This document shows positions 10,248 to 51,500 of a stretch of 64,000 nucleotides of DNA, in pieces. The stretch is from Lytechinus pictus (lineage: Eukaryota): contig NC_087251.1 in NCBI RefSeq assembly GCF_037042905.1, forward strand, positions 26,352,001-26,416,000, written 5' to 3'. How positions within the stretch are numbered: the stretch's first letter is position 1; every line of letters starts with the position of its first letter. The notes under the pieces are model-generated. The model was not told where the DNA came from, ran no database searches, and was given only the letters and a program-made list of their open reading frames with translations. The translations under genes and the position numbers were made by a program.

Positions 10248-13200
10248 CTACAAGTTCAAAGGTCACAGGAGGATAATATCGAGGAAGGGTAAACATCAAC
10301 GTTTCTTTATAGTGAGGTTTCCAAGTGATATAGTTTATGTTTTACATTCATGAATGAATAAGATGTCGTGAAGATGAACAGAAATTACAATCAGCAATAT
10401 GCAAATGGACACTTAAGGTTTCTTTGAATATGAAAACTTTTTCAGCGAATGTTGGATTTTATCAATCACAGGTGCAATTGAAACAAACCATTAACATCAA
10501 ATACTCCTTGACAAACTTGACTCGACTCTGATTATCAAACTGAGCACTACATTTACGCTTGGAGATGGTATATCACACAATGAACTTAATTCTGGTGATT
10601 TGAAAACCAACTGCTACTAGGATAAAGTTACAATGACTAATGGTTTGAATTCAGCAGTAAGTCTTGATTATATATTTACATATTACGCGGAGCCACAGTC
10701 ACATGCAATATATACAAACAATTTGAAATACAATATAATCAGCTGGTTTTCGACAAGCGCAAATATTTTCATTCCATACTGTTAAAAAATGTTTAATAGT
10801 ATTCTTAAGAGTAGTTTCAAGCTGTTTATAACCTTATAATGAATACTGGCCTGTTTATCTGTTTATAACATTTGTTCACTAATTTTAAAAAGCCCCAAGA
10901 CATCATGCACATATATAGAGCTAAGCTTAAAGGAGAATGAAACCCTTGAAACCAGCTGAATCCATATCAAAGAGAAAAATCAAAGAAACATATTGTTGAA
11001 AGTTTGAGGAAGATTGAATGAATAATAAGAAAGTTATGAGCATTTGAATATTGAGATCACTAGTGCCATGTAGATCCTCCCATCGGCAATGCGACCAAGA
11101 TCTGTGATATCACACACGTACAACTCCCTCATTACTTTAGTACTTATTTAACTTATATTCTCACTTTTATAGAGTCTATCACAAGGTGAGGTGTTCTCTT
11201 TATGAGATGACAAGTACAGAGGTTTCACAACATTATATCATTGATGAATCGTTTGTCATATGATTAGAATGAGCAAAAAGAGCTGTTTTGGGGTATATTT
11301 TCAGTGTCCAAATGGGAGAGTTGTACGTGTGTGACATCACAGATCTTGGTCGCATTGCCAATGGGAGGATCTCCATAGCATTAGTGATCTCGACATTCAA
11401 ATGCTCATAACTCTTTTATTGCTGGTCCTATTTTACTCAAAGTTTTGTTGATCTTATTCTTTGATTTTTCTGCTTTCACAAAAGCTAACTTGCTCCAAGA
11501 GTTTCATTCTCCTTTAAGGTGAACTATCTGGGACCCATTGCATGAGAGTTACTACTATTGTAACTTTGCCATCTGATGGTAACTGCCATGGTAACAATAC
11601 TCAACAGCCAATCAGAATCAAGGATTACATAAAAGAAACCATTGGATAACAAAGTTACCATAATAGTAACTTTTACGCAACGGGACCCTGTAGACTTGTT
11701 ATCTTTCACATCATCATCTCATAACTCACCATGCAACATGGTCTTCTCCGCTTGCATCTTGCTGGGCATGGCTCCGGACTGCGTGCTGGTCACAATGAAC
11801 TCTGACCTGGGTGTTGGATGGGACTGCTTCCTTGACCGGGGGTAGGTGCCCACATGGTTGGGAAGGCTCTCCTCCGAGACGGTCCGGTTCAAAGGAGGCG
11901 ACTGGGAGTTCAGTGTAGGGGTCTTATTCTGTTGTGCATTCTACAGAGTGTGAGATTTAATGAATGAGAGGAGGGGGGGGGGGTGGTGAGGAGAAAGAGT
12001 AAGAACAAGAAAATGTTTGTAAAATAATATATGCATTTTTCTCTGGAAATGATCTTGTAAAAATACAGTCCGATTCATCAAGGGTAGGCATTGCACTTTT
12101 GTTTTCTTTGTATAACGCATGAAACAAGAAATCAATAGATTTCACTTTCACATAATAATAACATAAAAGCATTGATCATACATGCATTCCCAGTATTTTT
12201 TTTTTTTTGGGGGGGGGGTTGTTAATACAACCAACAAGCATCAAGTCTAACACGTCAAATAAAAAAGTAGAATTAAAATTTTCGAATCAGTTGCCAACAC
12301 TGAAGATGAAAAGACAAAATTAATTCTGGTTTGTCAACTACTACTAGAATCAACAAAACTTGGTTAATAAAGATTAGGAATTTTAGTTGTTAATTTTACA
12401 TGTTGAAAACAATCTAATTCTTCTATTGACATGAATAATTTAAGATCACAACATCATGCTACTATAGGGGACAAAATCCAGCCAAGCACTCAGAACAAAA
12501 TCCCAATTAACCAACTCTTCTCTTTATCTCATATCTACAAGTAGAAACACAACCAATTCCTATTTTTTTTTAAATAGAAATATACCCTTTTAAGCTCTAG
12601 AATCTATAATCTAAAAGCATTAGATGATCTGCCAAACCTCATGATGTGGCTTGTTAAATAGAAATATAAAAACCAGCACCAATACAGAGTGCTTTAGAAA
12701 GCAGGTCCCACAAGTACCATTGCAAAGATGTCCAAAATCCCCCTGAATTATAGGGGGAAACAAAGCTGTTGTTCAGGAAAATTAGCATTAGTATGATGCC
12801 ACCGGATGTTCTATTTTGTACTTTTCACTAGTTTTAGCCTCAAATTCAAATGCAGATAAGTTTTTTTAAGGACTTATCTATGAGAATACCTGGGACCCCT
12901 TTTATACACTTTATCAAAAGGATAAACACGCTCTCGGCAAATCGAATGGGAGTATTTCAGAGGCTTGTAAGAGGCAACACCAAATGTCACAAGTTTATAA
13001 AACAGAGTCCACATCTCCAAATGGTGTGATTCTTCTTAAAATTAATCTAAACTTTGAAGTAATAATTTCCTTGCTACTTGCTCATGATTGAGAATGAATG
13101 AGATGTGCATTAATTAGTTTCACTTCATATTTCAATACCAAATATTTTTTTTCATATTGAATTCCAGAGTAGATCATTCACATTGTTGCAAGGGTGTTCA

Positions 13201-16200: not shown

Positions 16201-19200
16201 TGCCAATTGGCAACTTATTCACCAAGTATAAATTATTTTGATACTACAGTGAATATTTGCCTTTTTGAATTTCTGTTATGAAATTTGAAAAAAAGATAAA
16301 GACATTATGACCACATTTAATATAAATGAATTATTATTATTTGATACATTATCTTTGTCATGAATATTAAGAAAATAATTGAACTTAGCATTCCATATAA
16401 GCGTGGACTAAAATTCATAAGTATAGAGTTAAACCTGGGTTTAATTCTGAAAATATCATCCCATGGTTTATACAGACAAACAAGATACCAGTACATACTA
16501 TCAAAGCTGACTGAGAGGCATACTTCAATCACTACAGTATCGAGGGTCCATTTAATCAAAGAGTAGTTCTGGCCAAAGGCTCGAAATGTGGAAGAAACAT
16601 TCTCCAAAGGATTGGGAAAAGTTGATTAAAATGCATGATGAATTCATGATGAATTTATGTATGCTGCATGATTCTAAGAATATCCAAAATGATAAGAAAT
16701 TATTACATTGTGAGTCAACTGCAATTTACACAGAAATATATGCACTATGGGACTTAACATTTCAAAGTTTTCTCTATTCAAATTTTGAATGAAAGGGCAT
16801 TTGAACAGTAATTTGCAGGAAACACCAAATGGCACATAGAGAATTGTTTCGATACTGATGGATTGCCAATATTAAGGGTACTAAAATTGGCATAACTATA
16901 CCTCTCGGTCAGCTTTGGTTGCTTCCTTCACCAATATCCCAACTAAACCCATATCATCAATCATTGGATTGGATTCCTACCTCCCTCTCCTGTACAGCAT
17001 TGTAGGCATCGGGGGCCAGGAGCTTCCGAAGGTCATCCTGAACGCGATTGTTTGCCTGAGCCTTGAGGGGCGTGGTCCCACCACTCCTTACGGTGGGCGT
17101 GGTGGCCGAGTTGCCCCGTGACCTGGCAGCAAGGGATTCGTTGGATGACTTGTGACCATCAAGAGGTCTTCTAGAAATAAAAGTTTGAAAATACCTTAAT
17201 TATTAATAGATACAAAGGTGATCACCAGTCGAGTTCAATAATCATATTCCTTTTTTCTTTTCATGTATTCCACAGCAAAGTGTCCAATGAAACAACATCA
17301 TTTTACCTTTTTTACTCTCTCTGTTCCTGAGGAAGTTATCAAATGGAAACAGTTCACCAATGTATTTGTTTTTAAACATCAAAACTAGAGAATAAATTAA
17401 CAGCTGAAATACTGATGAATGTAATTTTACAGTTTGACAGATCAATGCTCCAACAGTGTCTTTGAACAATCACCATTCAAATAATGAATGACTTTTTATC
17501 CACATGGTCTTTAGGTTAAACTCAACAGAATGACACATACCTTCTTGCCATTTTAGGGCTTGTGCTGGACTCACTCATGCTGCTACTGGAAGATGCAGAT
17601 GGTGCTCCGCCTCTCCTGTGTATACTGACATAGTCTCCAGATCCGCCCCGCCTTGGACTCTGTGCCCTCTTACGGACCGTCTCAGGACTCTGTGCAGATC
17701 TCCCTGGCATCGGGCTACGTGCGGGCGACTGTCTGCTTGCTCTGAGGCTACCGTAGTCTCTCGATGCCCCTGTTCCTGAGCCACCAGAGAGGGTGGAGTG
17801 GGTGGAGTGGTCACTGATGTTGCTAGGTGTGGCATGGTGATGTGGTACGATGCCTGCAAGGTGGTTTGGGCGCTGTAGTCTCGGTTGCTCCATGTCAATT
17901 CCCTCCCTGCTTCTTGACTGAAGGGAAGTGAAAAGCAGGCTAACATGAATTTACCAGAATAAGAAATTGTAATACCGGTAGTTGAAATCAAGTAAGGAAA
18001 CCAATTTCACCATATCTTTAAGGCAAAATGTTATAAAGATCTAATTCACTTTTTACCAATTCCCTTGACAGGATGAGGATGTATTTAAGGTCCAAATGCA
18101 TAGTTTGTCTAAAGACATGAAAAACCCGGGGGACTGACTTAGAAGGTGGTAGTAAATCTACTGTAGTTGCTAGACTTTCATTTTGCTCCATCTATTTTAG
18201 CTAGATATACAAGATTAAACCCACCCCTGCATTACTTGACTGACTTTAAAGTAAATTAAACATGCAAAGATTGTCTTTACCTGATATAGCTGTTCCGTTG
18301 GGCTGTAACGCTCAGCCATTGCATAGTTACTCCTATTCTCTTCCTTGGTATCCTGTGAGCCGGGTGCATTGGTCGCTGCTGGGTTGGTACGGTACATGCC
18401 CTCTGGAACGTCCTTGGAGACGGTCACACCATTGTCATGGTAACCATTAGCATCGTCTCCCGTATCATACCACTTCTCGTCGCTGGTGTTGGTTGACAGG
18501 GTGTCTCCACTGCTTGTGTGCTTTATTGTTGCCTGGTGATTTTAAATATTAAAGAAGAAGGATAAATGTTAAGTTGAAATTAACTGAATTGCAGCTATAC
18601 ACATAATGTAAGCTGACAAATTGAAAAATTGGCACGGATTGATATAGGAATGACTTTCACCCGTGATGCACTTATTTCCCCATGATGTAACTTGAGCTAA
18701 CAAGGGAAAAGCTGCACCATGGGAGGAAATATTAAATTAAAAAAAAAAATCCAAACATATGCCTTCTAATGTTGTCAATATGAGAATAGCCCGGAAAATA
18801 AGTTGAGATTTTTCCCTGCATCCTTTAGCTATTTTCCAACTAATCCCTTTTATATCATTATTCGAATGTAGATGATTAAAAAACAAGTGGAATGCCTCTG
18901 GCGGTCTCACCTGCATCACGCGATTCAATATAGCAGCAGTGCTGACTTTGAAAACTACTATAACTCGCACAAGATGTTCAGTGTTACTTGGTTACTCTCA
19001 TGTACACGTTTTATGAACTAGACCAATACACTTACAGAGATATGATGGTAATTCAACAAATACCCCCAACATGGCCAAGTTCATTGACCTTACATGACCT
19101 TTGACCTTGAACATGTGACCTAAAACTCGCACAGGATGTTCAGTGATACTTGATTACTCTTATGTCCAAGTTTCATGAGTCAGATCCATAAACTTTAAAA

Positions 19201-20909
19201 GTTATGATGGTAATTCAACAGATACCCCCATTATGGCCAAAGTTCATTGACCTTTGACCTTGGTCATGGGACCTGAAATGCGCACAGGATGTTCAGTGAT
19301 ACTTGATTACTCTTATGTCCAAGTTTTATGAACTAGACCATTATAATCGCTGATGTGGTTTACGGTACACCATGTGAAGTGTTGTAGAAACAGTGGATAG
19401 GAGAAGAGAAGAAATGGATAGGCGAGAAAGTGGAGATTTGAGAGTAGAGTATTCTTTCTTGAAAGTAGTCCTGAAAAGGACTGTAAACCAGGAAAGATTG
19501 ATGAGTTGAGAACAGCTTGAGGAGTAGAGCTAGTGAGGAGATGCTGGCTTGAGTCGGCGAGTAGAGATGATGAGTAGTAGAGAGACTCGACGTTTCGGGC
19601 AGGTTGACTGTCCGTCTCCTGAAGACTTCAAAAACTTAACCTTAGGTTAAGATTTTGATGTTGATTCCCCCAACATGGTCTAAGTTCATTGACCTTAAAT
19701 GACCTTTGACCTTGGTCATGTGACATGAAACTCAGGCAGGATGTTCAGTAATACTTGATTAACTTTATGGCCAAGTTTCATGAACTAGGTCCATATACTT
19801 TCTAAGTTATGTTGTCATTTCAAAAACTTAACCTTCGGTTAAGATTTGGTGTTGACGCTGCCGCCGCCGTCGGAAAAGCGGCGCCTATAGTCTCACTCTG
19901 CTATGCAGGTGAGACAAAAACCAGATTTTAACAGATTTTAATAGGTTCTCTTATCTCAAGAAACTGCATCTCTCTATCCTTAATTTCCATTGGAAATGTG
20001 CTCTTATTTGAGGGATGGATTTCTTCACAAAAAAAAAACTCTAAAAAGATGGGAAATTATTAATTTTGTTCCGATGGTATCATCGGTCTATAACTCTGTT
20101 CCTTTTCACCTTAAAAATAAATTATCTATTTATTTGGAAAAATTGGGAGATTTTCAGCATAGATTTTTTCATATTTTACTTTATATTCAGCATAAATAAA
20201 TGCTGATGATTATGTAACCTTCTTCTTCTTCTCTTATTGATTTCTTCCAGTCTTGGAGAATTGCGAGATCCAGTGGATGGATACACAGAAAAAGTAGCTT
20301 GACAGGAATATAGAGAAAGGATAGAGATAAGAGCTTGGAACAGGAAGAGGATGGGCTCCAATATATCACAGGAATGTCTAATTGCTATTCACCAACAAAG
20401 AATATTGACTTAAAATTATCACAATAAACCTTAATAAAATACTATAATAATAATAATTATCAGCAATCGATATTATGGTCTTACCTGTGCTACATTATGA
20501 AGTGGATATCTAGCTTTGGGAGTGACAAACTGAGGCTGTTGCTTGTCCTGCTCTCTGCCCCTATCCTGGGGGGAGGGGTTGGCTTCATTTGGTCTATGCC
20601 AATTAGGGTTGGTCACATCTTTGTAAACTGAGAAAATAAGAGAACCAAATTAATGTCACCAAATACTATTTTGAGTAGTCTTAAAGATAAATGAGAGCTA
20701 TTTCCCAAGATCTTCTTGGGTAATCATATGGTATGATAATGTTAAGTGAAGAGTGGTGAAGATAGGTGATGATGATGCAGCTGCTGCTGCTGCTGCTGAT
20801 GATGATGATGATGAGTTTTCTCTATTTCATGTCTGTCTGTTATTGGCTGGACTCCGTATCCACATGGGTAAGAATGAGGAGGAGGATGGTGGTGGTGACA
20901 TTGGGGATG

Positions 20910-20941
<32 letters not shown>

Positions 20942-23900
20942 GATGATGATGATGGATGATGGATGATGGATGATGGATGATGATGATGACGACGACGATG
21001 ATGGCAATGATATCAATGATGATGATAATGATGATGATGATAGCAATGATATCAATGATGATGATGATGATGATGATGGTGTTGATATCAATGATGAACT
21101 AATATTCTTCTTACAAGATAAACAATGTTATTAAACTCTAACGAGTAACACAGAGTTTAAAATGCAAAACTAACAAAGAATTACCTATCTCAATGTCTCA
21201 AATCATGAAATAATTTAAAATGAATATAAAATTTACTTGGTAAAGACAGAGCTTAGTTTAAACATGGGTTAATGCACATACTCTTGCCTATGAGAATGTT
21301 ACCTTAAAAACAAATGGTAACTTTATTCACTGCCACCATCATTTACCTTTTGTTACTGCTTATTTTATTACAAAGCAATGTAAAAATCTTTTACGTAAAT
21401 AAAATATAAATACTCAGCCATAAAAAGGCTGCAAGTTTAAAGTCAATGGAATAATAAGTTCTTAGATACATCCTTCTATCAAGAAAGAGTTAAGTTCAGA
21501 AATTTTTACTTTGGACGTTGTGTATCTTTTTTTTTGGGGGGGAGGGGTAAGAAGCTCAAGGTAAAAGCAGAAAAGTGGGGTCAAATATTTTTTTTTCAAC
21601 TCACTAATCATTTGCAGTACATTTTTTAAAACTAAATTGCAGATAAGCTTATATTTGCTCAGGTTTTATTCATGCAGATGTTAAAGAGTGTCAGCTTGGG
21701 CGTGAACAAATTCTATTCAATGAAGTGAGAAATACAATCATAATTATGAATAAATCTACCGAACTTAAACCATAAATAAAAGAGTAAACAGCAAGCCTGA
21801 AATGTGCTAAATACCATACAGAAATTCACACCGCAGGAAGTAGAGCCAGATTGATGGCTTGTAGCAACCATATCCAACAACCAAAAACAACAAAATGACA
21901 CACTCCAATAACAACCATCCAATCATAATACACCATTTGAAAATCACCAATAATCCCCTTCACTCCTCACAGCTACAGACCTCCCAATATTTCTTGCTGG
22001 AAAAGAGCTAAAAATTATGTTTCCTAACTCGAAATTCAATAGTCTGCATGCCTGTACATGAAAGGGCTGATAACAAGTTGGTGGAGGAGTACTATCCATT
22101 AATTGTGATTACTCATAAGAAGATAAATTTCATCTTAAAGTCAATTCAAAGATTCTATCTTTATTTTATATACATTCTAGACTTATATTTCAGTACTTAA
22201 AAGCTGGTAAAATTTTAGTTGAACCAGATAGACCTTTAAAATCAAAGCAGCTAATAATTATGCCGACGACTGGTGATTAATAATTCAATATTTTAATCTG
22301 CCCCTATTTTTTACAATACTTGGTGTTGCCAATTTTGTAATTTAAAATCTAAGGGTGTGTGTGCAGCCATTGTGATTAAAGCGAGTGCAGAGTGCCTTTA
22401 AAGATCTCACCCTTGACTGGATGTTGGACATGAGAAGGAGCAGACATACACCTGTTGAGTGCTGATTGCATTAGAGCAAAAATTACATCAATAATATCCC
22501 TGAAGTCGTACATTTATATCATTCTTAAGATACTTCTGAATAGCTTGAATGCACTGCTCCAGTAACTGATAAAATGTTTCCCAGTTGATCAAAGAGGACA
22601 TTCAATAGTTTATTGATCTCAATAGAGCCCTTTTTACAAGATATTGACAATTTATAATATTCTTGATGGAATAGAGAAATCTAAAAATATCTTCATTCCC
22701 AAATTGAACATCAAAATCATTCTTGCAGAATTTTGAATTTGATTAGTTTTAGTAACTCTGACATCCCACTTTGCAGAATTTCATATAAAGTTGGCTTGAA
22801 TGATAAATTTCATATGGAAATTCACTTGTACGATATTGGATGGGATCACTAGATTGAAGTCCCACATATAAGGTTAAGAGATGGAGTAAATACTTGAACT
22901 GCATAATAATCTTGAATTGTTGTACCTCTAGTCCTGTAGTTATCCAGGCTGTCCTCGAGGGATCCCTGCCTAGAATGGGCTCCAGTCCCAATACGATCCA
23001 GGTCCTCCTGAGAACTCCTGAGCCTAGCTTGCATGTCATTAGGTCTCCTCCTCTGCTCCCTGGCACTCCTTCTCTCATGGACCATCCTCATAAAGGACCG
23101 ATCACCCGCATCATGGGACAAACCCCTACTGTGACCACTACCACGGGAGGATACCTCTTGAGGCGTGGTCCCACCACCGGTGTTCGCCTGCTGGTGTGCG
23201 CGGGTGTTCACATCTTTCCAGTAGTCAACAGCAGCACGGTAAGGGTGCTTGTTGGCGGAGCCGCCCGATGGTGGATCCGTGACGTTAATGCGACGCTCGA
23301 AGGTCGTGATGGCCGAGCGCACGCTGCCTTTGACCGGTAGACCTTCTTCATTAGTGCCTGGAGGGTAGATAGGTGTGTTGGGGGCTGAGCGCAGCATCGA
23401 TGGGGGTTGCCCAGGTGTGGATGCAGATCGGGAATGATGTGCTGACTGTCTAAGATCTAACAGGAAAACATAAAAAAAATATATTACGAAGTTTGACTGC
23501 ATAAATACGATATGGTTCTTTTCTAACAAACTTTCTATATGATCATCAGTATTCTAGTGGATCTAGAAAATATACAATGACGAACTGATCAAGAAGCAGG
23601 GAAACACAGGGGACAAATATGTCCAGTAAAAGAATGGCAGATGAATACTATATTGTTGCTTACCTCTGCTTGACATTGCCAGAGATGAAGAGATCTTATG
23701 AGGTCCTTTGCCAGTGCTTGTACCTCTGTTGAAACCCTGTCTTGCCCCTCCTGGTTGGGTCACTGCTTCACTGTTACCCATATACTCAATTGGTGTACTT
23801 CCTCTGCAAGGGGTAAGAATAAAATCAAATATAGCTATCCACTGCATGCTCAGTCAAATTTTCCCAAAAAGGCAGTTAAGCTGTACACTGAAACAAGTGT

Positions 23901-26900
23901 ATGGGACTAAACATGCATAACCAGCATTAACATCCAATCCCAATTTGTAAAGATCACTGGAAAAGTTTAAATAGTTTGAATAGTGACCCACTGCATGCTC
24001 AGTCAACTTTCCCCAAAAAGGCAGTTAAGCTGAACACCGAAACAAGTGTACGGGACCAAACATGCATAACCAGCATTAACATCTAATCCCAATTTGTAGA
24101 GATCACTGGAATAGTTTGAATACTATACAAGGGGAATTCAAAAACAAGCCTTTGAATTTGACATTTTGACTATAATATCATTTTCAGATACATAAAAGAA
24201 TGTGAGCATATTGTCCCAAATCTAACTGAAGATTTCATTTTCTTTTGTTTCTTTGTGAATGTAGGAATTAACCTACCTTTCCCCCAAACTGAATATTCTT
24301 TTAATCAGTTTATTTGTGAATGTAATAATTTGCCTTCATTTTTCCCCGAAACTTAACTTTCCCATTAATCTGACCCTTTATAAGTGTAAGGATGAACCTA
24401 CCTCCTAGGACTGCCATCTTCACATGGTGGAACAACAACCACCTTGACGGTCTGAGAGGTCCGTAGTAGATCTATCATCTCTTCATGCGTCTGGGTACAT
24501 ACAGCTATCTCACAAATCTAAGGAGACAAAACATAATCAATATGGTGATAATGACAGTTACAATTATAGAGTACTGAATGTAGTGTTTGAAGCACTTTTA
24601 ACTTGTAAATATATAAATTCAACATATAATTGACATAACACACATTATAAAATCAAGTCTCTTTCTGCTTTGGAGAATCAGTAATTCAGTCAGTAGTTGT
24701 AAATCTTGTTTTGTACAAGGGTGATCAGATTCACCTCCCACTTGCGACAATCAACCATATCCCCTCCCTCCACTTTGCATGATTCAGTGCATCCTCCTTC
24801 CTCTTCCCAACCCTCCACTTGTTTCTTGTATGTCTTCTTTGACCGTCCACTTCGCTTCAAAGCCCCCCCCCCCCTCCACCTCAAATGAAAAAGCCCTTCT
24901 TAAAACATGCCTGTCAGAGTTTTTACCATTTCCTGATTCCTCAATTTTTATTTGTTTTCCCCACTACAGCTGATCACCTTCAGAGTGAGTTACTTCTGTC
25001 AATTCTGGTAGACAAATGGCATTTTATAAACAAAAAATGGTACTTCTTCAATCGTACTGACCGCAAACATGCTCTAATCCTATAATGTGCATACTTTACA
25101 TGCAAACTTTTTTTTTTCATTTATTTTTTGCATTACATTTTTAAAGTAACTTTTTAGGGTTGGCTCTTACCTCAACAAGCCTTGCTCCTTTTCTTAGTCC
25201 AGCCTGCCATGCAAACCCATATGGATCTACCTCAACTACTATACCCTGGTAGTGTACATGGAAGCCAAGCTGACCAAGGCCATTACGTCTCAAGGTGATC
25301 TCTTTGGTCTGCAACAAAAAGGCATAAAACAATGAAATAAGTGAACAAACCTAAAATATATTACAAATTAATCTCCTTTTTTTTTAACAAAGACAAAAAT
25401 CTGTTGCTTGAGATGAAGTTATATTGCAAAAGAATTCAGACAAAACTGTTAATAGAAAATTTATAGAGTACAGCAAAGCAAAGACAAGATAGATCAACTA
25501 TTATAAGGCATTCAGCGTTATAAATGCCTTAGATATGGGTAGAGACTTCAATCTCAGTTTATGGTGGTTTTTCTACAGCTGTTTGTATGCTATAAGCAAC
25601 TGTTCTCATGACTGGTGACCAGTTCTTGTGGTATATGAGATATCCTTATTTGTCTTGTTTTGACATAAATAAATGTGACTCTAAGTCCTACTTTACGCTC
25701 TGTGAAACACACCCCAGATGTGTGTAAATCCTGCATTACTTTTGTACAGCTTCATGAAAGACCACCATGGTATGTAACTGAACAACATACAGGCAAAACA
25801 AAATGGGTGATTTCAAGTTCAGTGTTGACCATTTGGTGTTGGTGTTTTTTTTACACGATTATAACACCAAACATAAAATGAAGATGGTCCCAAAAAGTCA
25901 CTCGCTAGTTGTTGAGATGTCAATGATGTGATCTGGATCAGTTTTACAAACTCTGAATAAGTTTTGGAGCTGGGGGAAGCAATCCAAATTTCAACACCAA
26001 GGCTAACACCGGACTTGAAATCACCCAATGTGTCAAGGTCACAGCATACTTACCCTAGTACCGTTGGATACTGCTTCAAATCTCTTGACAATCTCAGGTA
26101 CCTCATCAAGATCTTGATCAGGAATGCGTACTCTAACACAGTTACCTTCGTTGAAGTACAGCTTCAATCTAGAATATTCCAAAAGATTATTGTAAACAAG
26201 GAATCAGTGGTGTGTTTGTGAGTGTATATTGTATCATGTAGAATTATGTAATTGGAATCATTTCAAAAGCAAAGCTATACCAAAGATCATTGGGGGATTT
26301 TCTGAATGAGGATTGTAACAAAATGACATCATTAGAATCTTATTCCACAATTTGTTCATTTTCTACTTTCATTTTCTACCTATTTGCATATTTTCTACTA
26401 CCTTATCCTATTTTCTACTAGCTATTTAAAAGCTCCTCATTCTCTTTTAAATCTTTTTAATCTTCATCATTATCATCATCATCATCATCACAATCATCAT
26501 CGTCGTCGTCATCGTCATCATCATCGTCATCGTCATCACCATTACCATCATCATCCCCGATATCACCACCACCACCACCATCCTCCTCCTTCTTACCCAT
26601 GTGGATACGGAGTCCAGCCAATAACAGACACACATGGAATGGAGAAAAGAACCTCTCTCGTATGGTAGTTTGTTAGAACCATCATATCCATGGAGACAGC
26701 TAGTAAACAATCCACTGGATCTGACAAACTGAAGTCTTCGGCCTAGAATAAGAAATAGACCAATATCATAAACAGATTACATTTTTTCCACCAATAATGA
26801 CAACAAATTGATTTTTCTGAACTGCATTTCTCAAAACACATTCCACGTAAATGTATCAAATTTAAAACTACAGACAACTTTGATTTAAGATCTCATTTTA

Positions 26901-27498
26901 AGCTTTAATGTGTTAAATACCAATTTCAAAAAATTTGAAAGCATTTCTTTTTTCTTGATTTTTTCTTAACAAAGTGCAGCTAATGTGATACAGATTCCTG
27001 TCTTTTGTATTAATGAGGAAAAAATTAAGTCACTGATCAAAACTAGAAAAAGACAATTATCAATCGGAAAATTGGAGGATACAAACATGCACTTAAAATG
27101 GGCATGGACAACTGAAATTATTAATAAAGGACAATTATACTATACTCTCAAACAAAAAACATAACATCTCAAATAGATAACTATATTCAAGCAACAAGAG
27201 ACATGGAGAAGGGTAATGGGAAAGGGTGATGACATTGGTGTGGACAAAATATAAATAAGGCCAAGAAAGACAAAGTTTGCTTGCCACAATCCAGGAGAAC
27301 ATAATGAACCCTGCGAACTTAAATGTACAAATTTGAACCCTCCCCCCCCCCTCAAAAAGAAAAAAATGTGCTGATTGACCTTCATTTTTTATTATTTTTC
27401 TACATTTTCTTCTTTTTTTTTTTAAATAATAAAAACTGGAAAATGGCCCTGTAGAAATTCCTCTAATTTATATCATTTGCTAGAAACACTGACCTTAG

Positions 27499-27530
<32 letters not shown>

Positions 27531-30500
27531 ACCAACCCTTGTACCTTTGTTACTGCAAACAATCATTTTATTTTTCTCGGAAAGTATGATCATATGTAAA
27601 AAAGGAAGCATAACACCAAAACAGGTTTATACAAGAGTGAGACCAAAGACGTCTATCGGGGAGGGGGGGGGGTGGCAAACAAGTGTCTACTAAAGTGAGA
27701 CCACGACGGACCTTTCTTAAAAAGTGATTGACCACTCTGTCTCAGATTTAGCACAACATAACAAATATCACATTGTGAAAATTACAATATGTATGAAAGC
27801 AAACGCCAACCCGTCTGGAAAGCATATATGCACATTTTCAGTTCTTCAGGTAATATGAAATCATTCTATGGTAGTTACAACTGACTTAGCTTTTGCTGCA
27901 AGAAGCAATAAATATGTACAAATAGGAATAAAGCTGAGATCTGTCATTTTTTTGCAGTTTGAAGCTGGTCATCGATGATGGCCGCATTTGATGTTTGCAA
28001 TCATGCACGGGTATACTACGTTAGTATTGTCTAGAATTGGTACAAATTCTTCATACTCTCTACTTTCAAGCTTACTGTATGCACTGAATAACAGAGTATC
28101 CCACGATGAATGACATTTTGCTTCATATGAAACTTGACTTGTGTTTCGTACAGGAAGTTCAGAAACCATCTGATTCCAGTATGCAAAAGTTTAATACACT
28201 GGAATGTTGTCTCTGAGTGGTGATATACATGTATTATTGGGCTATTGCGGGAAATTTACGTTCAATTGTAAATCAAGCATAAGTCCCCAAATTAAGCATT
28301 AAGAGGTGTAGCAAGAAAGTCGAGTAGCAACTGAATGCAAATCAACTACAAAAGTTTGTGTTTAATCAAATGGCTTAATCCTTTGATTTGGGACTTGCTC
28401 TCGATAGATATGAAATTAGACGTAAGGTTCTTGCAAACGCCGCATATAGCACCAATGGATTCATAAGCCAGCCCCATCTCCCTGCTCGGGAGGGGGGGGG
28501 GGGAGTACAAAATGATTACTACAACAGATCTTTATTGGGTCATACAGAGCATTGGACATCCCCCTGACATGATATTTTCATTTTTTATTTATTTCATTTT
28601 ATTTTTTTGGGGTGAGCACTCTAATGACCTGTGGGATGGGTGAATGATGTGCATTTTATTATAATATAGTAGCCCCATCTAGTTGTAGGCAAGTATATAA
28701 CCAAATAGTGAGCATGAATGTTCCAATCACTGAAAAGTTAAACTTCATTTTTTTATGTCATGAGACTAAGTTCCATTGAAATTTACAATTCGCCCAAGGG
28801 GACTGTTCTTAGCTGGCAAATATTGCCCATTTACTCTAAGTAGTTTTTTGCACTGTTGAAGATTAATACAAATTCATAAGACTTTAAATAATCTATTGGC
28901 ATATTTGTCAATACATACAGGTACATGCATAAGCAACTGGTATCTTTGCCCTTTTCAGCCAAACAAATTTTATGTATGGTTTGAATAAAACCAAAATTAT
29001 ATCATCATTGCTACAGTGTGTACAGTGAGTTGCAGCTTGAATGAAGTAACACTGGATATGAGAAGTGAAATCAGAGTAAATGGATCAAAGATGAGATGAG
29101 CCACTCTGTGCATTTTCTTGAAACAAAGTGACATCCATACATCATAAAAACAAATGAAGATTGTGCAGAGCTTAAAATCACAAGTTTTCTCCTCAGTTGT
29201 TTTTTTTTTTCTTTCTTACTGTTCATCTTTCGTTTCAATGAATAATGATCCATCCCACCAAAAGGAAAGGTGTTATGGCTCTAAACATAAATAAGGAAAA
29301 CAAAATAACAGGCCAAAATGAATGTGTAGATATAAAGTTATATTGTGTGAAAAGGTAGATACAAGGCTTTGAAATTATACATAGCTTGTTGATTTTGATT
29401 AGCTTTCACTCATAAAAGTATGTGATTTATTAAGGAAAATTTTCAGGAAGTGAAGATGGGTTCGGTATATGATTTTCACACAGGCATGAGGTGTGCTTGC
29501 AAAGAAAGACCTAATGAAACTCTCAGTAAAAATGGCATTATAATAAAAATCTTGAATCTTGGCTTTGATTGAATTTTATGACTTCGTATTTTAAAAGGAA
29601 ATAGAGGATGAGACAAGACTGTTGTGTACATTTTGATGTATGAAGGACAAATGGGGAGTGGCTCATTACAGAGAATATTCTCTTGTGATATATCTACAGT
29701 ATAATCTGCAACTGGTGAAGACATTTTGAAAGTGATGTCTTAATCCAGGCAGGCAAATGAAAGGAAACCTTGTTATGCTTATCAGAGACGATAGATATTT
29801 GAAATAAAGAGTGTTTACGTCAGACGTTAAATCATATGATTCCATAGCTACATTGAATTTGTGCTATATTCAACTCTCTCCCTTCCCTTTCAAAACACAG
29901 AGTCTATGTAATTGTATGGGAATGAAAATAACGGCCCAATACAGAAACAAAACAAAGAATATATAGCAAGCCTCTTTTAAGACAAAACTCTGAAGTTCTA
30001 CTGGGAATAGACATGTTTACTATAAAAAAAAACACAACTAATATGAAATCCAACTATATTTGTGCACAAAACAAATTACTGAAATGTCAAGTGATTACAC
30101 ACTACCATCTAATGTCTTTGGTGAGTAAAAATTACAAAACTGCATGCAACAATTTTGTTTTTCCAAGTAAATGATCCAGGATTGTACAAAGAGAGGTTAA
30201 GGGTCAAGGAAATAACTCTAAATAAGAACCAAGAGAAAATAAGAACTACAAATCAATCCATGCTTGATATGATGAGGCAGCAAGCACTATGAAATGAAAT
30301 TTGCCATTAAAAAACATAAACAAAATACAAACAACCATCCAAATCAAATATCCAACTCAAAACAAACATAACAAAATGTTTCAAATGCATTTTTTTTTCT
30401 TTCAAAGTTGGTGCAAATTTGTTCACCTTTGAATTAACGCCTTTCCCAATGGGTGACCACATGAAAACCTGTGTTCATAATTCGGGCAAGAAATGATGAA

Positions 30501-33500
30501 ATTTTGACGTTTGAAGGGTTTTTTTTACTCTGAATCCATGTTAACAAAAAGTTTTATGTAAAAATCATCACGAGGCCTATAATAAAAATATTTCATTAGA
30601 TATCTTGGTGGTTAATTTTATGTGCTATCTACAAAAGTACCCTAATATGTAATATATATTGAATGACTACAAACTGCCAATATATGTCCCAATACAAAAT
30701 GACTTTTTAATTTGTGTACAATATTTGAGGGCAGTTCATGAAACATAAACTGGCAAAAGTAAATGGATACATCATGATTACTGAAGTAAATACAACCTTA
30801 TTTAAAGGTACAATAAAAACTAATATCATGATCTATCATTAATATTATATAAGAAATATGAAGAGCTATATTTCACTGCTATTTCTGTTCAGAATTCAGC
30901 CTTGATATAAGTTAACTTCGACAAAAAGCCATTCATATAAAAAGAATATAAACCCGATCCAGATCCTGAAACAAAATACTCTCGGGCAGCCATTCCCACT
31001 GCACAGTAGTATGGCAAACTGAAGACAAAATTCTGGTGTTATAACATTCATAACTGCCATTCAAATATTTTGTGTTATGAAACTTTTATCCCGTGCACAG
31101 AACCAGTTTTGAGATAGTTAAACAAATTTTTTCTCGCATTCAAAATCAAACATCATGATTCAAGAAAGAGTAAGAAAAGAGGCATTGTCAAGTATCTACA
31201 TACCTGAACATCCCAAACCAAAGCTCCTTTTGCCTTGAAGTCTGGGGCAGGTCTGGGGCAAGTCTTTTCCTTCTTCTTGTCAAATAGTTTGAACTTGCCC
31301 CCTCCTCCCGTCTCGATGGCCGTCGAGGTCACGTAGGAAGCAGCTAGATCCTTGAGGTATTCCTTGCGGGTACGCGTTGCCATGGCAATGAACTTGTCTG
31401 CCTTGTGCACAGCGTTTTCAGCATTGATGACTGAATCAGAAATGAAAAGAAATAACTTTTAAAATTAGAAATGAATAAATCAGATAAGTTAAGTATAGTG
31501 ATGTTTTGCAAATTTGCAAAAATAATATAAATGTATTTTTTGCATGGTCTAATATCATTGAGTTAAATTGAACTGAATTGAATTGAATTAAACTGATTAG
31601 CTGAATTGGCATTTATACAATTACAAGATTTTCATCTAATGCATTCGAGCCAAAATGTCATTTACACCAAGAGATATTTAGTAGATGATAATTTCAAGAA
31701 TTTGGAATAGAGCAATGTCTTGATGAACCATTGTGGCCTTAAAATGATTACTTCACCATACACTTTGTATTTGCATGTCAAGAGGGACTTACTTTTGGCA
31801 AGAAGGAAATCTGCAAAAGCTTTTGATTTCTGGAAAGTGGCATTTACTGGCAAGGGAGGGCCAAAAGATGGGACTTCTTTAGATCTGCTCACAGCAATCC
31901 TGAAAGAAAAGTAAAATTACCAAATCATAAGTTCACAGTTTAGGTCAGCATTGTCTTGTTGTGTCTTTTTTCAGTAACTACTTATCATTGAATATAAGAG
32001 ACTGTAAGGCAGGATTTATTATTTCAATTCATATGTGAAATGGGAGACACAAAAAATATGTTGTTGTTTTTTAAGGAGGGATAAATAAATAAGGCAGGTA
32101 GACATCAAATGATTCATAGTTAGTCTTATTATCAGACAGTCTAATAACACTTGTGTTTAAATTCATTGCTTGATTATCATAACATTGATAATAAAGTTAA
32201 ATTTTGATTGAATTACACTGCACTTTTAAGAGTACCTAAATAGTTGACTTTCTTGTAACAGCCATGACCTGAAGACCATTCATATTTTTATCCAAGAATT
32301 TGATGGGAAATATCTAAACTTGTAACAATGGCAACTACATGGCAAACTGGAGAGCATTTCATGAAAGAATTTATCAGATGTTTTATCCGACAAAGTCAGT
32401 TTATCCAAGTTACCATAGTAATGGTGCTTCTCAAGCCAATCAAAATCAAGGAAATCTTTCAGATCTGACATGAGGGAGAATATCAAATGGGCATTAATAG
32501 ATAAAATGATGAGATGAAGTGACTATACAGCAGGCCCTCATTGAGACAATGACAGCAGCTGTATGGTGCATGTTGAGATACACTTACGAGTAGTGGACAT
32601 TCTCTGTGTTTGGTTCGTGGACTCGTACAATGATGAAAACATGCTGGAATTGTGAGCGTACATTCTTTGGTGTGAACGGAAGAGCCCCTGGCTCCTGGAA
32701 CACGATGGTCACTATGTCATTGCCTATGTGCCTCTTCCTCAGCAGCTATTCAAGAAATCAGAATATATGTTTAACATCAAATTAACATCCAGTAATCTAA
32801 AACTCAATATTTTGATAGATTTATGAATATTTAATTTTGTGATATTACATGTGACCAGTTCCTGGATGTATCATGTGATATACATTCCATGAAGTGACTT
32901 CCGCTAAGAAAAGGAAATGAGATTGATTTTACTTCTAAATTCAATATATGATCAAATCTATTATCTTATGCACACTTCTATAGAAAATGCTTCCATGTGA
33001 TGTCACAAAATCAAACATTAAATATGCATACTTTTTATTCTTGGATGCATTTACATCAAATCTACATTAGCATGCTTCTCATAATTTATACTTTTATTAA
33101 AGCTGTCTTAATGTCACGGTGAATTTCTCCTTTAAAACCATCATTTTTGGGGGGGATTCTACCAAACAACCAATATAAAATTGCAACTTTAAATGAAATA
33201 TGGAAACTATTTTAACTTTTTTCTAAGAATAAACACAAAATCAGATTGAAAATCTGAAAGAGGTATGATATTCTTTGATTATGTAAGCCTTTAATCCATT
33301 TCAACATGACAATTCCAACATTAAAGAAGATTAAAATCTTGAAAGAGGTATGGTAGTACTCTTGGCAATAGACATGCAGTGGCCTTGAGTCCCTGAGACA
33401 TTATGTTTGCTTAATCATTAATGTCTATGACTCATTACATAATGTTGGCACAAAATAGTCACAATGTAACCGCAGAATAAAATTGCTCAGTCATTGAAAT

Positions 33501-45500: not shown

Positions 45501-48500
45501 CCAGACAAGGATATGATAAAAACCAGGACCAGTTATTTGAGAAGGGAATGTGGTAAAATGGCAGAAAAAAGAACGGGTATAGCATGCAGGAAATATTGGA
45601 TTAATATTAATTCATTTCACTCCCCATGAGAAGCCCTAACAACACAGGCAAGAGAGGAGGTTCCTTGCGGAAAAAAAAACTGACGTAAAATTACAAAAAC
45701 ACTTCTTGGTTAGTCATAGAATGGATTAATAATGCTAATACATATTTGAGTTTCATGGTGTTGGAAATGGGACCAAAAGACATACTGTGATATCCCTAAA
45801 ATAGTTCTGTGATTACAAGGAATGAGGTGGGGATATTTCTCATATTACTTATTAGGTCAACTGATTCAATAATAGGAAATAAAGCGGTCGAATTTTTCAT
45901 ATAATTATTTATTCTGGACCTATTGTTGTTTCATGATCTAAGCAGGAATAGTGACATTTTGTAATCGATCTTTTACACAAATCATTTTTATTCAATAACT
46001 AAATTTATATCCTACATAGATTGAATCCTGTATAGTGATTGGTTCAAGTAGCATCATGTGACCGAATATATTTCAACTATGATGTTGCGTGACGTCAGAC
46101 CTCGATATATTTTTGGATATACCAATATTCTGACGTCATTATTTCACAAAACTGGATATCTCGGCGCACCGGCTTGCGCGCGCGCAAGTCCAGCGTGATG
46201 CGTCAGCGCAGACACTAATCTGCGTTCCGCTGAGCGCGGTGGCTCGGAGAAAAGTAGGTAATTCAACGCAAGTAACAGGACTTTGCATGCTCAGCGCATA
46301 GATTTTGGTTATAAATTATTAAAAGTAGGATATAAAACAAATATATCAGGCGTTTCATTCGAAAGCATAGTGGGAATTATTAATCCTCGGTTGGACTGTC
46401 AAAACTACTATATTTCCCTCGGGGCTTCGCCCCTCAGGGAAAAATAGTAATTGCCAGACCAACCTCAGATAAATAATTCCACTATACTTTCTCAAAGCCT
46501 GATATATTTTTTTAATATAAGCATTCCAAGGCCTGAGAAATAAAACATTACCAGTAAAGGGGGCTAAACATGTTTAATGATCAAATACAAAGTTTTACAA
46601 AGAAACAATTAAACTACTGTAAATCTTATTGTCATTACCCTTTTACAAGATTTGGACATTAGAGAAATTATTCACATGATCAAATCTTAAACAAATATTG
46701 GCTTCAAACTTTAAAGGCATACAAATGCATTTGGCTGTATACGTTTTAATTGGCAATTCCATACATGAAGACTAGTATCATGTTCCTGTAGCGTAATCAA
46801 TCACCTATAGCCAATACTGGTGATCTACTGTCTGATTGAAGAGCTGCTTTAATATAGTGATCTTCCTACATCTTCATTTCCACACTGAATATCAGATTGC
46901 TATATTGGGCAATTCTAAAGAAGCTGAAGGATCTCCTATATCCTGTATTGGGAATATCATTGAGCACTATTTCAGGAAACCTTAGCTGCTATCTCAAGAA
47001 AGGGATCCTGGAGAGGATTCCGCCCTTTATTTGACACAAGAAGAGACGAGTGACAGATTCCAAAATATCAACCTATTGTTTAAGTTCACACCACTTAAAT
47101 TTTTTTAGAAAACCCAGTGAACACTCAAGATTGATCCATAGCTACATTCTGTCAGATTTTTAAAGGATCACAGGCTAAATATTTGTGAATACTTTGTGAC
47201 TTGCAAGAAACTTTCGCAAAACTAGGTATTTACAAGGAATTTTTAAAGAGTTGGCAAACATCATGAACATAGTGCAAAGAAGCTTTGCAAGCAAATCGCG
47301 AAGAAATGCAGTTACTGTGTTTTAGGCTTGACGTTTTTATTTGTGATTTTATCTTGCATGACAATGACATGATTGACCATGAGACTTAGCTCTGTCACCA
47401 CTGACCTCTAAGGGATCAACACAGAGGACAGCTGAACTCAAAAGATGGCTAATTTTATACTCAATTGACTTGAATCTATCTTGTATCCAGTCACATAGAA
47501 ATAAGCCATCAAACGTTGACATATTTTGTTTGCTGCTGTTTGAAAAACTGACCTGTTGCTGTTGTTACAACGCATGGAAAAGGATAACTGCCCATTTTTA
47601 TTGGTTATATAATTTATATTTTATGAGTAACCTTGCAATTCAGCAACAATTGCATTTAAAATAGCTATTTACATGTATTTTTGTAGTTGATTGATCTGCA
47701 AACTTCATTTAAAGTTCTCCATCCCATCCCCTCCTGAATCTAGTTTGATCCCTTCCTCAAATGGAGAGCTTGACTGCAATGCAATATCGGGAGCATGAAC
47801 AACTATGAACTTCCTTGCTTCCTACTCTTTCATTTTGATTATCTCTATAGTGTCAATCAAAAGCCCAATACAGAGCAATTCAAGCTGTTTCATTATCATA
47901 CAATCTAGTTCCCATTGCCAATGGCGACTCCCTGCAGAGCTGATCTTTCTACGAAAACATCCTCATCCGAAAGTGATACCTCTGAGAACAGTTTCAATCT
48001 CCAACCAAAACTTTCTCAGTAACCTTTCAAGTACTTCCTCTAAGTTCTTCCTGTTTGCTACAATAGAAAGTCAGAACATATCCTTCATGCAAGAACTGAA
48101 TGGAGTTTTCTGTGGTCGAGCTGCTTCCTGTGAAACCAAAACTGTTACTTCTCTCAGCAAAGGCATCGGGTAAACACGGGCGGTATCGCTGAAATGACAG
48201 AAGTAATTCTCCTAGCCTCCCTAGAATATTGGACCATGGAATATGTCACCAATCCACAATAAAAATCAAAGAGTAATACTGTGGATGAACATGTTTGGGA
48301 AACTAGAGCTAACATTCATGATATTTAATATAAAAGGGAAGAGGTCATAAATCACTTTCTCCTAAGATTACTTTTTAACTCTTTTAAGAACTGTGATGTT
48401 TGTCATGCCTTAACCCTATCTAGGGGGGGGGGGGGTCTACAAGACCCCCCTCAACGATTCGTGCAATATTTTTTACTACCACTCCAGGTGGGTGTTTCAT

Positions 48501-51500
48501 AAAGCTGTTCATAAGTTAAGAGCGACTTTAAGAACGACTGGTGATCCTTTCATGTGGTAAATAATATATTCATTGGCAATGGTTAAGCGCGTAAGAAAGG
48601 ATCACCAGTCCTTCTTAAAGTCGCCCTTTAACTTACAAACAGCTTTATGAAACGGCCCCTAGTACCAACTGCTCATACATCTTACAATTGCTCCAGTAGA
48701 ATGATCAGAGGCATATGCTGTAAGACCTGTGCTGTAACCACAACAGTTTCTCAAAACCACTAGATCTCTGGTGGCAAAGGCTTGATCAATTACTACTTAG
48801 TCTGATCTAATTTTGTCCAATTCTCATTAAGGTTCATCCCTCATAGTCAAATCCATTACTCTATTTTTTATTACAAATGATTTTCAATAATGAATTAGTT
48901 TAATATCCTTTTGACCCATTTACCATTTCACAAGATCTCCAGAACTTTGGGCTATGTACATTTTGTCTAATACAAATTTTGTCTACAACCTCTCGGTGTT
49001 TGCTGCATGAATCTTGGACTCAATAGCAAGTTAATTCTCAGGGCTTTTTAAAAATAACCACATTTCTATGATAAAATGTAAAAAAATTGTGCTTATTATT
49101 GGTCTATTCATTGTTCCATGAAAGCAACAACTACTCAGTACACTCGTAACATGTGATGCATCTGAATTGAGATTTCAAAAGAGATGTTCCAGTGCTGCTA
49201 ACAAACATCTTTATTACCTCTTTGTCGCTGGGCGCAAGCTTACTTTCAAGCAATGCTTACCTCACTGGATCTGAGTAGAATCCTATATCTATATCTCATG
49301 TTATGGTCTTTGCTATTCTCCACCGGACTCTCCTGTTCCTCCACTCTCTCCCTACGGACGCTGACAGCCAGAGGACCAAGAAAGTCATCCACACCAAAGT
49401 AGTTCTGATGTTCTACAGGAACAAAATAAACCAGGGACAAGAATAGAATTGTGGGTAAATACATGTATGCATTTAAAACAGAAGGTGTAATATCCTTGAG
49501 TTTATAGGGTCGAACATAAATAAATCATGATCGTCACATTTTCTACATTTATATGCTTTATAATTTTAAAACAACACACATCATCTGATTTGACCACAAA
49601 GTGTTCATAATTGTGTTGATAATTCTTTACACTGATAATATAACTAAGTGAATTCTTTCTTTCCTGATAAAGAAAACAAATTACTACAATCTACTTTCGA
49701 AAATTTCTTATTAAATTCCTTATGAAAAATAGAGCCATCAATTTCATAAGAACATTAATTCTCATAAGAAATGAAATCATGGAAAAGGCTGTTGGCAATA
49801 TTAGAGCTAATGTGTACACATGTTTGGGTCTTTAAATTCACTGAGGATGAAAACCTTTTCTCCATTTCAAATACAAAACAAAACCCAAAACTGTACAACA
49901 TATCCACACTCCATAACAAAGCTTAAACGGACCTGTATATTATCTGCTTCATCATCAGATGGTAATCAGGTTAGCAAAAGTGCTAAATAATTTCTCTATT
50001 GACTTTACAAGGATCATTTGACTGACACAATTCAAAAGGTTAAACATCAAAGTGACAGTCCCAACAGCCTGAGAAAGACTTCATGCACAAAAAATATCCC
50101 CTAATTGACATTGCCTGGCTAAAAATGGACAGGAGGCTACACATCACAGGAAATTTGTAGTGACAGGATTCTGCCAAATTTGTAAAATAATTTTTAATGC
50201 AAGAATTATAAAGCTTTATTAGGAAATTTAGAGGGTGCCCAACTAAAAAGATTTTGAATGACATTCCTTTTTTTTAAATAAATCAAGTGTTAACCCATCA
50301 CTTGCAATCAAGAAATTGCAAAAAATAATTTGTCTTAATATTTTAAAAATATTAATTGTTTGATACCAGATTACATTAATCACTACAGATAGAATAATAC
50401 AAAAATGGTTTTAAAAATGGAATTATAGAGAATAGCAATTATGAAGGCTTTTATTTTTATTTTTTTAATTTTAGGGGCAAACTAGTTTTTGCACCAATAT
50501 ACATGCATATTTTGCCCTTGGTCTTACCATGTTTGTAGAAGTACTTGCGATAATACAGGGCGCCTTGGTCCATGTGTTCTATGACAGGCCCACGCCAGAC
50601 GTAATTGGATTGGTCATCGTTGGTGATGAGCTCGGAAGCCCCCCTCTTCTCAAGAATCGTTTGATGGCGATACCTGGTAGAGTCATAAAATAAGAGTTGA
50701 TTTGATTGAGTCAGTGATTGGAAGTGATGTCATAAAAGAAGAGTTGATACGATTGAGCCGGCAATTGGATAAATGTATTTGAGAATGCATGAGCGAGGAT
50801 GGGATACCGATGTTAATGGGCGGAGGGGAATGACAGTTGTGGAATTTGTTTGATGAGGAGATGGCTCTGATGATACTATGCCACAGTATTCGGAGGAGCT
50901 TCTGAAGGATTGCCAACATTCAGGGAAAGTCTTTTTCTTTGTAAAGGCTTTATATTGCTCATCTTTATAGCTGAATATATTTTATTATTAAAAGAAAAAA
51001 CAAACTTTCATGTTCTTGTTAATTTTAAACTCATTGCATGTGTAGACTTTAGGAGAAACTTTTTTAGTCATGTTGAATATATGGCACTTTCATTACATCG
51101 TAATGAGAAATGGGCTAAGACTGATGAAGAACATGTACTCTACAAAGAAATTATATGTTCATGACAATCAACTTTATGTAAATGGTTTCATTATAAGCGA
51201 TAGACTTCACTTTGCAAGTGACATAAAGCCTTATAACATATAACTCAACAGAAGGGTTGGATTTCATCTGCTCTGCACTCATGCAATTATATCATAATTA
51301 AGATAACTGTCAAACTAATCCTCTATCCTTAATCCATCCAGGTCACATATACTCAGCTATATGAGAGGCTTCACTAGCAGTTTTTCCTGTCCCATTTTAC
51401 CAACTTTTACATGATCCAAAGCTGTGTTATTGTTTAATAAATCATTAATTCACTCACAAATGTAAACAAAATGAAGCAGAGTCTATCCCCATTCCAGTTA

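Follow-up and report, generated by a model that had tools for sequence, protein, structure and literature searches.

Template switching has been described as an origin of RNA hairpins, inverted copies and templated insertions (PMC8794818, PMC10710096, PMC8421209, PMC11161834, PMC7954356). In such events, whether of the type of break-induced replication mediated by microhomology (MMBIR) and fork stalling and template switching (FoSTeS) or the short-range switching behind RNA hairpins and new microRNAs, nearby sequence is copied in inverted orientation (PMC8421209, PMC7954356, PMC8794818, PMC10710096). Here we describe an inverted copy, probably of this kind, in a SIPA1L gene of the sea urchin Lytechinus pictus, where the end of exon 12 and its splice donor recur in antisense within intron 18. 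The stretch analysed, hereafter the window, comprises 64,000 nt of contig NC_087251.1 (RefSeq assembly GCF_037042905.1, positions 26,352,001 to 26,416,000 of the forward strand), and all positions are counted from its first nucleotide. Like the described insertions, the copy shows homology at the switch points and provides a ready-made RNA stem without transposon features. In contrast to them, the switch here covers 5.7 kb rather than tens to hundreds of bases, it seems to have been primed by two long microsatellites of opposite orientation rather than by a few bases, and it captured an exon end together with a splice donor.

Complementary sequences within a gene are also known from RNA biology. 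Both back-splicing into circular RNA and exon skipping have been attributed to reverse-complementary matches in flanking introns (PMC8938519, PMC8330042, PMC8052449). As in those pairs, the arms at our locus bracket internal exons and their predicted duplex is long and stable; unlike those pairs, which are usually repeat elements lying wholly in introns, one arm is half exonic and includes the upstream donor. In substrates edited by ADAR, such as GluR-B with its exon/intron pairing (PMC1920255) and Gabra-3 with its distant intronic element (PMC3479170), bases of a coding exon pair with an intronic stretch, as is predicted here. However, the complement classically sits in the neighbouring intron and shares the conservation of the exon, whereas our copy lies six exons downstream. 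Long-range structures that act on splicing, such as the human pairs of conserved complementary regions (PCCRs; PMC8052449), those of Drosophila (PMC2724269) and that of ATE1 (PMC7797038), share with the predicted pairing its kilobase range, the involvement of a splice site and the looping out of exons, but they are defined by conservation and typically much shorter than the pairing of exon 12 with the copy. In human genes, active splice sites and exon-looping configurations are depleted of such pairings (PMC8052449), which makes the arrangement described here atypical for a selected regulator.

The copy belongs to known kinds, namely template-switch insertions and intragenic complementary pairs. 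We conclude that the pair is a real, local, two-copy inverted duplication, probably formed at the DNA level by templated insertion. In our favoured reading, which we hold to be fairly probable, this insertion was primed by microsatellites, and the antisense copy of exon end and donor that it left behind is tolerated.

The inverted pair and its host gene

The initial annotation had claimed an inverted copy of the end of exon 12 with its donor, and our analysis recovered the arms, the 41-nt match and the GAT/ATC extension alike. A repeat search of the window returned the reverse-complement arms 20816-20897 (plus strand) and 26567-26648, which are 82 nt long, 93% complementary and separated by 5669 nt. 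They differ at six positions, three on the exon side and three on the intron side. The exact 41-mer has two matches in the window, at 20834-20874 (plus strand) and 26590-26630 (minus strand). Chance was ruled out as the origin of the pair, as none of 100 dinucleotide shuffles gave two or more such matches. BLAST extended the pair to 20816-21025 versus 26648-26437 (215 columns, 81%), crossing repeats of opposite orientation, namely (GAT)n at 20906-21086 on one side and (ATC)n at 26460-26555 on the other. When all 64 kb were compared with themselves, nine repeat pairs emerged; of the three inverted ones, the pair of exon 12 and the copy alone has arms more than 200 nt apart. The gene lies on the minus strand, so that the copy is antisense in the pre-mRNA. 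The pair consists of the following parts:

26567..26648, minus strand: core of the source arm, made up of the 52 terminal bases of exon 12 (26648-26597), the GTAAGA donor (its GT at 26596-26595) and intron 12 up to its 30th nucleotide
26437..26566, minus strand: extension of the source arm in the first part of intron 12, with mini-repeats of GGA/GGT and a tract rich in (GAU)n (TRF 26460-26555, period 3, 32 copies)
20816..20897, plus strand: core of the inverted copy, like the minus strand of 26648-26567 with 6 mismatches, in intron 18 and 188 nt upstream of the exon 19 acceptor
20834..20874, plus strand: exact 41-nt block, equal to 26590-26630 on the minus strand, with 34 exon bases followed by GTAAGAA
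20898..21086, plus strand: right flank of the copy, an imperfect (GAT)n-type microsatellite homologous to the source tract, with the insertion junction inside it
20767..20815, plus strand: left flank of the copy, the tract (GAT)3 GCA (GCT)6 (GAT)5 GAG, with the junction GAG|TTTT, whose homology to the source does not exceed 3 nt

The host gene was identified as a sea-urchin SIPA1L (RapGAP-PDZ) gene from translated frames that match Rap_GAP and PDZ. Its closest relatives are sea-urchin SIPA1L proteins, with the L. pictus protein P0001 95-100% identical over most well-bounded exons and the Strongylocentrotus purpuratus protein P0002 in second place. We fixed the ends of exons 11 to 20 exactly; all have AG/GT borders, and the spliced frame is open. 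On the minus strand, the exons are:

31430-31204, minus strand: exon 11, 227 nt
26742-26597, minus strand: exon 12, 146 nt, donor TGG|GTAAGA, between the RapGAP and PDZ domains
26168-26054, minus strand: exon 13, 115 nt
25308-25171, minus strand: exon 14, 138 nt, PDZ coding
24517-24402, minus strand: exon 15, 116 nt, PDZ coding
23803-23664, minus strand: exon 16, 140 nt
23456-22926, minus strand: exon 17, 531 nt, with the weak donor GAG|GTACAA
22461-22411, minus strand: exon 18, alternative, 51 nt, following the weak exon 17 donor; present in S. purpuratus P0002 and in P0124, not in L. pictus P0001
20627-20485, minus strand: exon 19, 143 nt, the first exon past the copy
from 18532, minus strand: exon 20

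Six exons, 13 to 18 (26168-22411), thus lie between the arms, exons 14 and 15 with the PDZ domain among them, as had been proposed. The exon map also agrees with other parts of that proposal: skipping of exon 12 (146 nt) shifts the frame, the join of 31204 to 18532 is in frame, and the suggested back-splices from 22411 or 22926 to 26168 coincide with real exon ends. If exon 12 were instead joined straight to exon 19, an outcome absent from that proposal, the frame would be shifted. Intron 12 measures 428 nt and has a good donor. A putative small alternative exon at 30412-30471 (minus strand), between exons 11 and 12, has about 20 residues matched by four S. purpuratus isoform models.

Copy number, junctions and origin

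In the 811-Mb genome of the same animal, an exon 12 query matched nothing but the exon itself and the copy, two places in all. For a 1.2-kb query centred on the copy region, the window itself was the single full-length place, and exon 12 was the only other match that reached its unique part. More than 100 further matches were confined to the GAT-rich part, and the four GAT-only loci that we inspected, of five retrieved, were all plain imperfect (GAT)n microsatellites. The flanks of the copy are contiguous single-copy intron sequence, with the plain microsatellite as their sole multi-copy part, and none of the hallmarks of a transposon (terminal repeats, target-site duplication, many copies) was found at the copy. 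Since the unique part occurs at two genomic places and all other matches are microsatellite only, the copy is not transposon-borne; the two-copy count, the single-copy flanks and the plain (GAT)n nature of the further matches rule this origin out.

A duplicated coding exon was rejected, as tblastn gave only a 17-residue match at 82%. Rfam returned no match over 17000-33000. A metagenome scan with the exon 12 peptide found one relative among 462 candidate stretches, which was 46% identical and not from a sea urchin. A search of protein collections with the 118-aa frame over the copy, aimed at finding the copy in contigs of other individuals, gave 22 candidates, none of which scored.

The copy interrupts a GAT/GCT microsatellite of intron 18, with GAT repeats immediately on both sides (20767-20815 and from about 20898). 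At the source, the exon end and the donor are followed by about 45 nt of GGA/GGT-rich intron and then by a GAT tract of its own, in the opposite chromosomal orientation. One junction is buried in GAT repeats that are common to both loci. The other reads GAG|TTTT in the copy versus GAGG TTC|TTTT in the source, a homology of 0-3 nt. Exon 12 must be the source rather than the copy, because its protein is conserved among sea urchins (96-100% identical).

This junction anatomy favours a microsatellite-primed template switch as the origin, which the initial annotation had offered as its fall-back. From the junctions we infer the repair pathway and the direction of synthesis as follows. A break or stalled fork within the (GAT)n of intron 18 would leave a 3' end of ATC repeats. 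This end would anneal, at a distance of 5.7 kb, to the oppositely oriented (minus-strand) GAT tract with which intron 12 begins. Synthesis would then leave the repeat toward higher coordinates and copy first the beginning of the intron, then its GTAAGA donor and finally 52 nt of exon 12, after which the new strand would rejoin the original intron 18 tract with little or no homology. Annealing and extension of this kind predict exactly the orientation and the extent seen in the copy.

The same genome (G000) is very rich in imperfect (GAT)n microsatellites that include GGT/GGA/GAC variants and reach 1-2 kb (e.g., C3:4918300-4920700 and C14:13255600-13256700). They amount to many long sites able to prime ectopic annealing.

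An artefact of assembly, for example a chimeric or fold-back read set in the microsatellite, could be suspected because assemblies are weakest in simple repeats and the copy is surrounded by them. However, an artefact of this type would give arms identical to each other, whereas the observed arms diverge by 7% (6 substitutions in 82 nt) and also differ by indels in the GGA/GGT repeats. Read with gaps, the cores differ by five substitutions, one of which we judged compatible with G-U pairing. Of the three exon-side differences, one is synonymous, one changes P to S and one changes V to L, the pattern that an unconstrained copy would be expected to show. Both this resemblance to decay and the contiguous single-copy flanks argue against an artefact, which we regard as very improbable.

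Predicted pairing and its possible consequences

The initial annotation had further postulated a duplex of 100-180 bp between the arms, and in silico folding predicts a very stable one, which also forms when the 6.2-kb pre-mRNA stretch is folded globally. Counting in the repeat tracts, the arms are predicted to pair at -275.2 kcal/mol, versus -53.0 and -18.0 kcal/mol singly, and in the fold of the whole stretch 168 of the 199 pairs formed by 26430-26660 go to 20800-21100.

Several of these results weigh against our view that the copy is a tolerated relic. The 101-nt arms have a predicted duplex energy of -149.3 kcal/mol, versus -21.7 and -12.4 kcal/mol for the single arms. When the 6161-nt stretch 26760-20600 is folded to its minimum energy, 75 of the 82 core positions pair with the copy, and even with intron 12 removed, 52 exon bases still pair at a predicted -84.5 kcal/mol. 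The geometry of the arms is of a type known to favour back-splicing and exon skipping. Moreover, the longest perfect block lies exactly over the splice donor, a position for which selection or gene conversion could be responsible. With 6 mismatches among 82 positions, a perfect block of 41 nt is not significant (P = 0.09).

If the duplex forms, it could measurably promote back-splicing of exons 13-17 or 13-18 into circular RNA that codes for the PDZ domain, skipping of the looped exons, or both, whether or not this is adaptive. The arms are placed accordingly, on both sides of exons 13-18: the upstream arm extends 160 nt (to 26437) into the intron before exon 13, and the other arm lies in intron 18, after exons 17 and 18. 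The very stable duplex predicted, its presence in the global fold, the weak exon 17 donor (GAG|GTACAA) and the role described for flanking matches in the papers cited above all speak for such an effect. The predicted circles would measure 1040 nt (exons 13-17) or 1091 nt (exons 13-18). Human exons that stable pairings loop out show lower inclusion (PMC8052449). Against it stands the composition of the upstream arm, which is half exon and covers the donor of a 428-nt intron that has likely been spliced long before the second arm is made. The join of exon 12 to exon 19 is, moreover, out of frame, so that skipping would mainly yield substrates for decay. Finally, there is no isoform without these exons among the seven near-full-length sea-urchin protein models (P0001, P0002 and P0121-P0125, treated as coming from other species), all of which retain exons 12, 13-17 and 19. 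Taken together, we consider an effect on back-splicing or skipping possible but rather unlikely.

Six of these seven models, all except P0001, have an extra block before the exon 11 side. In the S. purpuratus isoform models (a cluster of nine, of which eight were mapped besides P0002), skipping of exon 12 or of exons 13-17 occurred in none; they come from another species and hence have no bearing on the copy. A limited literature search of titles and abstract starts turned up no dedicated study of sea-urchin circular RNA.

The same duplex could instead make the copy an editing-complementary sequence, with ADAR editing adenosines of the exon 12 arm and recoding the protein. The predicted exon-intron duplex is long and nearly perfect over 52 exon bases (-84.5 kcal/mol, as above), and exonic editing sites set by an intronic complement, at times a distant one, are described (PMC1920255, PMC3479170). 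Editing would change the encoded residue at five of the seven exon-arm adenosines, and four of these five lie in the perfect block:

26622, minus strand: candidate recoding site, I>V
26613, minus strand: candidate recoding site, T>A
26606, minus strand: candidate recoding site, Y>C
26600, minus strand: candidate recoding site, H>R

However, the complement lies six exons and 5.7 kb downstream rather than in the adjacent intron, which departs from the classical layout, and the candidate residues are identical in three sea-urchin species, with no hint of tolerated recoding. We therefore find editing of this kind quite improbable.

Most likely, the copy is a tolerated relic whose effects on the RNA, if any, are incidental. 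Intron 12, with its 428 nt and good donor, is probably spliced before the antisense arm is transcribed 5.7 kb later. Co-transcriptional splicing should therefore usually remove half of the first arm in time, and because the short intron is likely gone before the second arm is made, only incidental effects would be left. These may include some A-to-I editing within the arms, low-level back-splicing that involves exons 13-17 or 13-18, or a slight loss of splicing efficiency. Strong inverted structures are tolerated in other introns of the same gene as well, namely a 592-nt element and a 160-nt palindrome.

Inverted repeats elsewhere and meaning of the copy

The 592-nt element (10926-11518) lies in a 3' intron and has inverted arms of about 208 nt, which are 80% complementary and enclose a spacer of 178 nt. 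It has at least 40 near-full-length matches at 98-100% in the same genome, the copy in the window included, out of 2278 first-look candidates. From its sequence, it looks like a member of a very recently active family resembling miniature inverted-repeat transposable elements (MITEs). The 160-nt palindrome (48494-48653, 76% self-complementary) lies in the long intron that separates the exons at 49252 and 37468. Motifs similar to its ends occur at other inverted pairs of contig C1, within a 200-kb sample, and it is hence probably a small transposon relic. Intron 15 contains a tandem duplication at 23831-24122, between the second PDZ exon and exon 16, with a 149-nt unit in 1.9 copies that are 91-92% identical.

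The same 200-kb block of contig C1 served as our sample for the base rate of local inverted pairs. It contained 34 inverted high-scoring segment pairs (HSPs) within 10 kb, 24 of which came from one complex array. Outside this array, eight well-separated inverted pairs were considered. Two of them were checked genome-wide and both proved to be dispersed repeats, with at least 40 scored matches each and 1459 and 999 first-look candidates, respectively. These results imply that transposon-derived inverted pairs are common. A second pair of the non-transposon type was not seen in 264 kb, where two of the eight well-separated sample pairs were checked against the genome. The array itself (G000:C1:10146000-10156200, block positions 146000-156200) is a 10-kb tandem-array complex in the form of a large inverted repeat, with arms of up to 1.7 kb at 81%.

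What the copy means depends on the fate of its transcript. That an antisense arm born by template switching is now in use appears improbable to us; it would tie the exon 12 donor to transcription of intron 18 and give either PDZ circular RNA (exons 13-17 or 13-18) or recoding by ADAR (I>V, T>A, Y>C, H>R). If it were in use, the locus would show, caught in the act, the birth of an editing complement or of a pair that promotes circular RNA from the gene's own exon. Should back-splicing, skipping or editing prove true, this would be a simple birth route for circular-RNA pairs or editing complements. If the copy is inert, as we favour, it offers a datable case of two opposite microsatellites seeding an inverted copy of functional sequence within one gene, and such a strong potential duplex spanning six constitutive exons would be tolerable.

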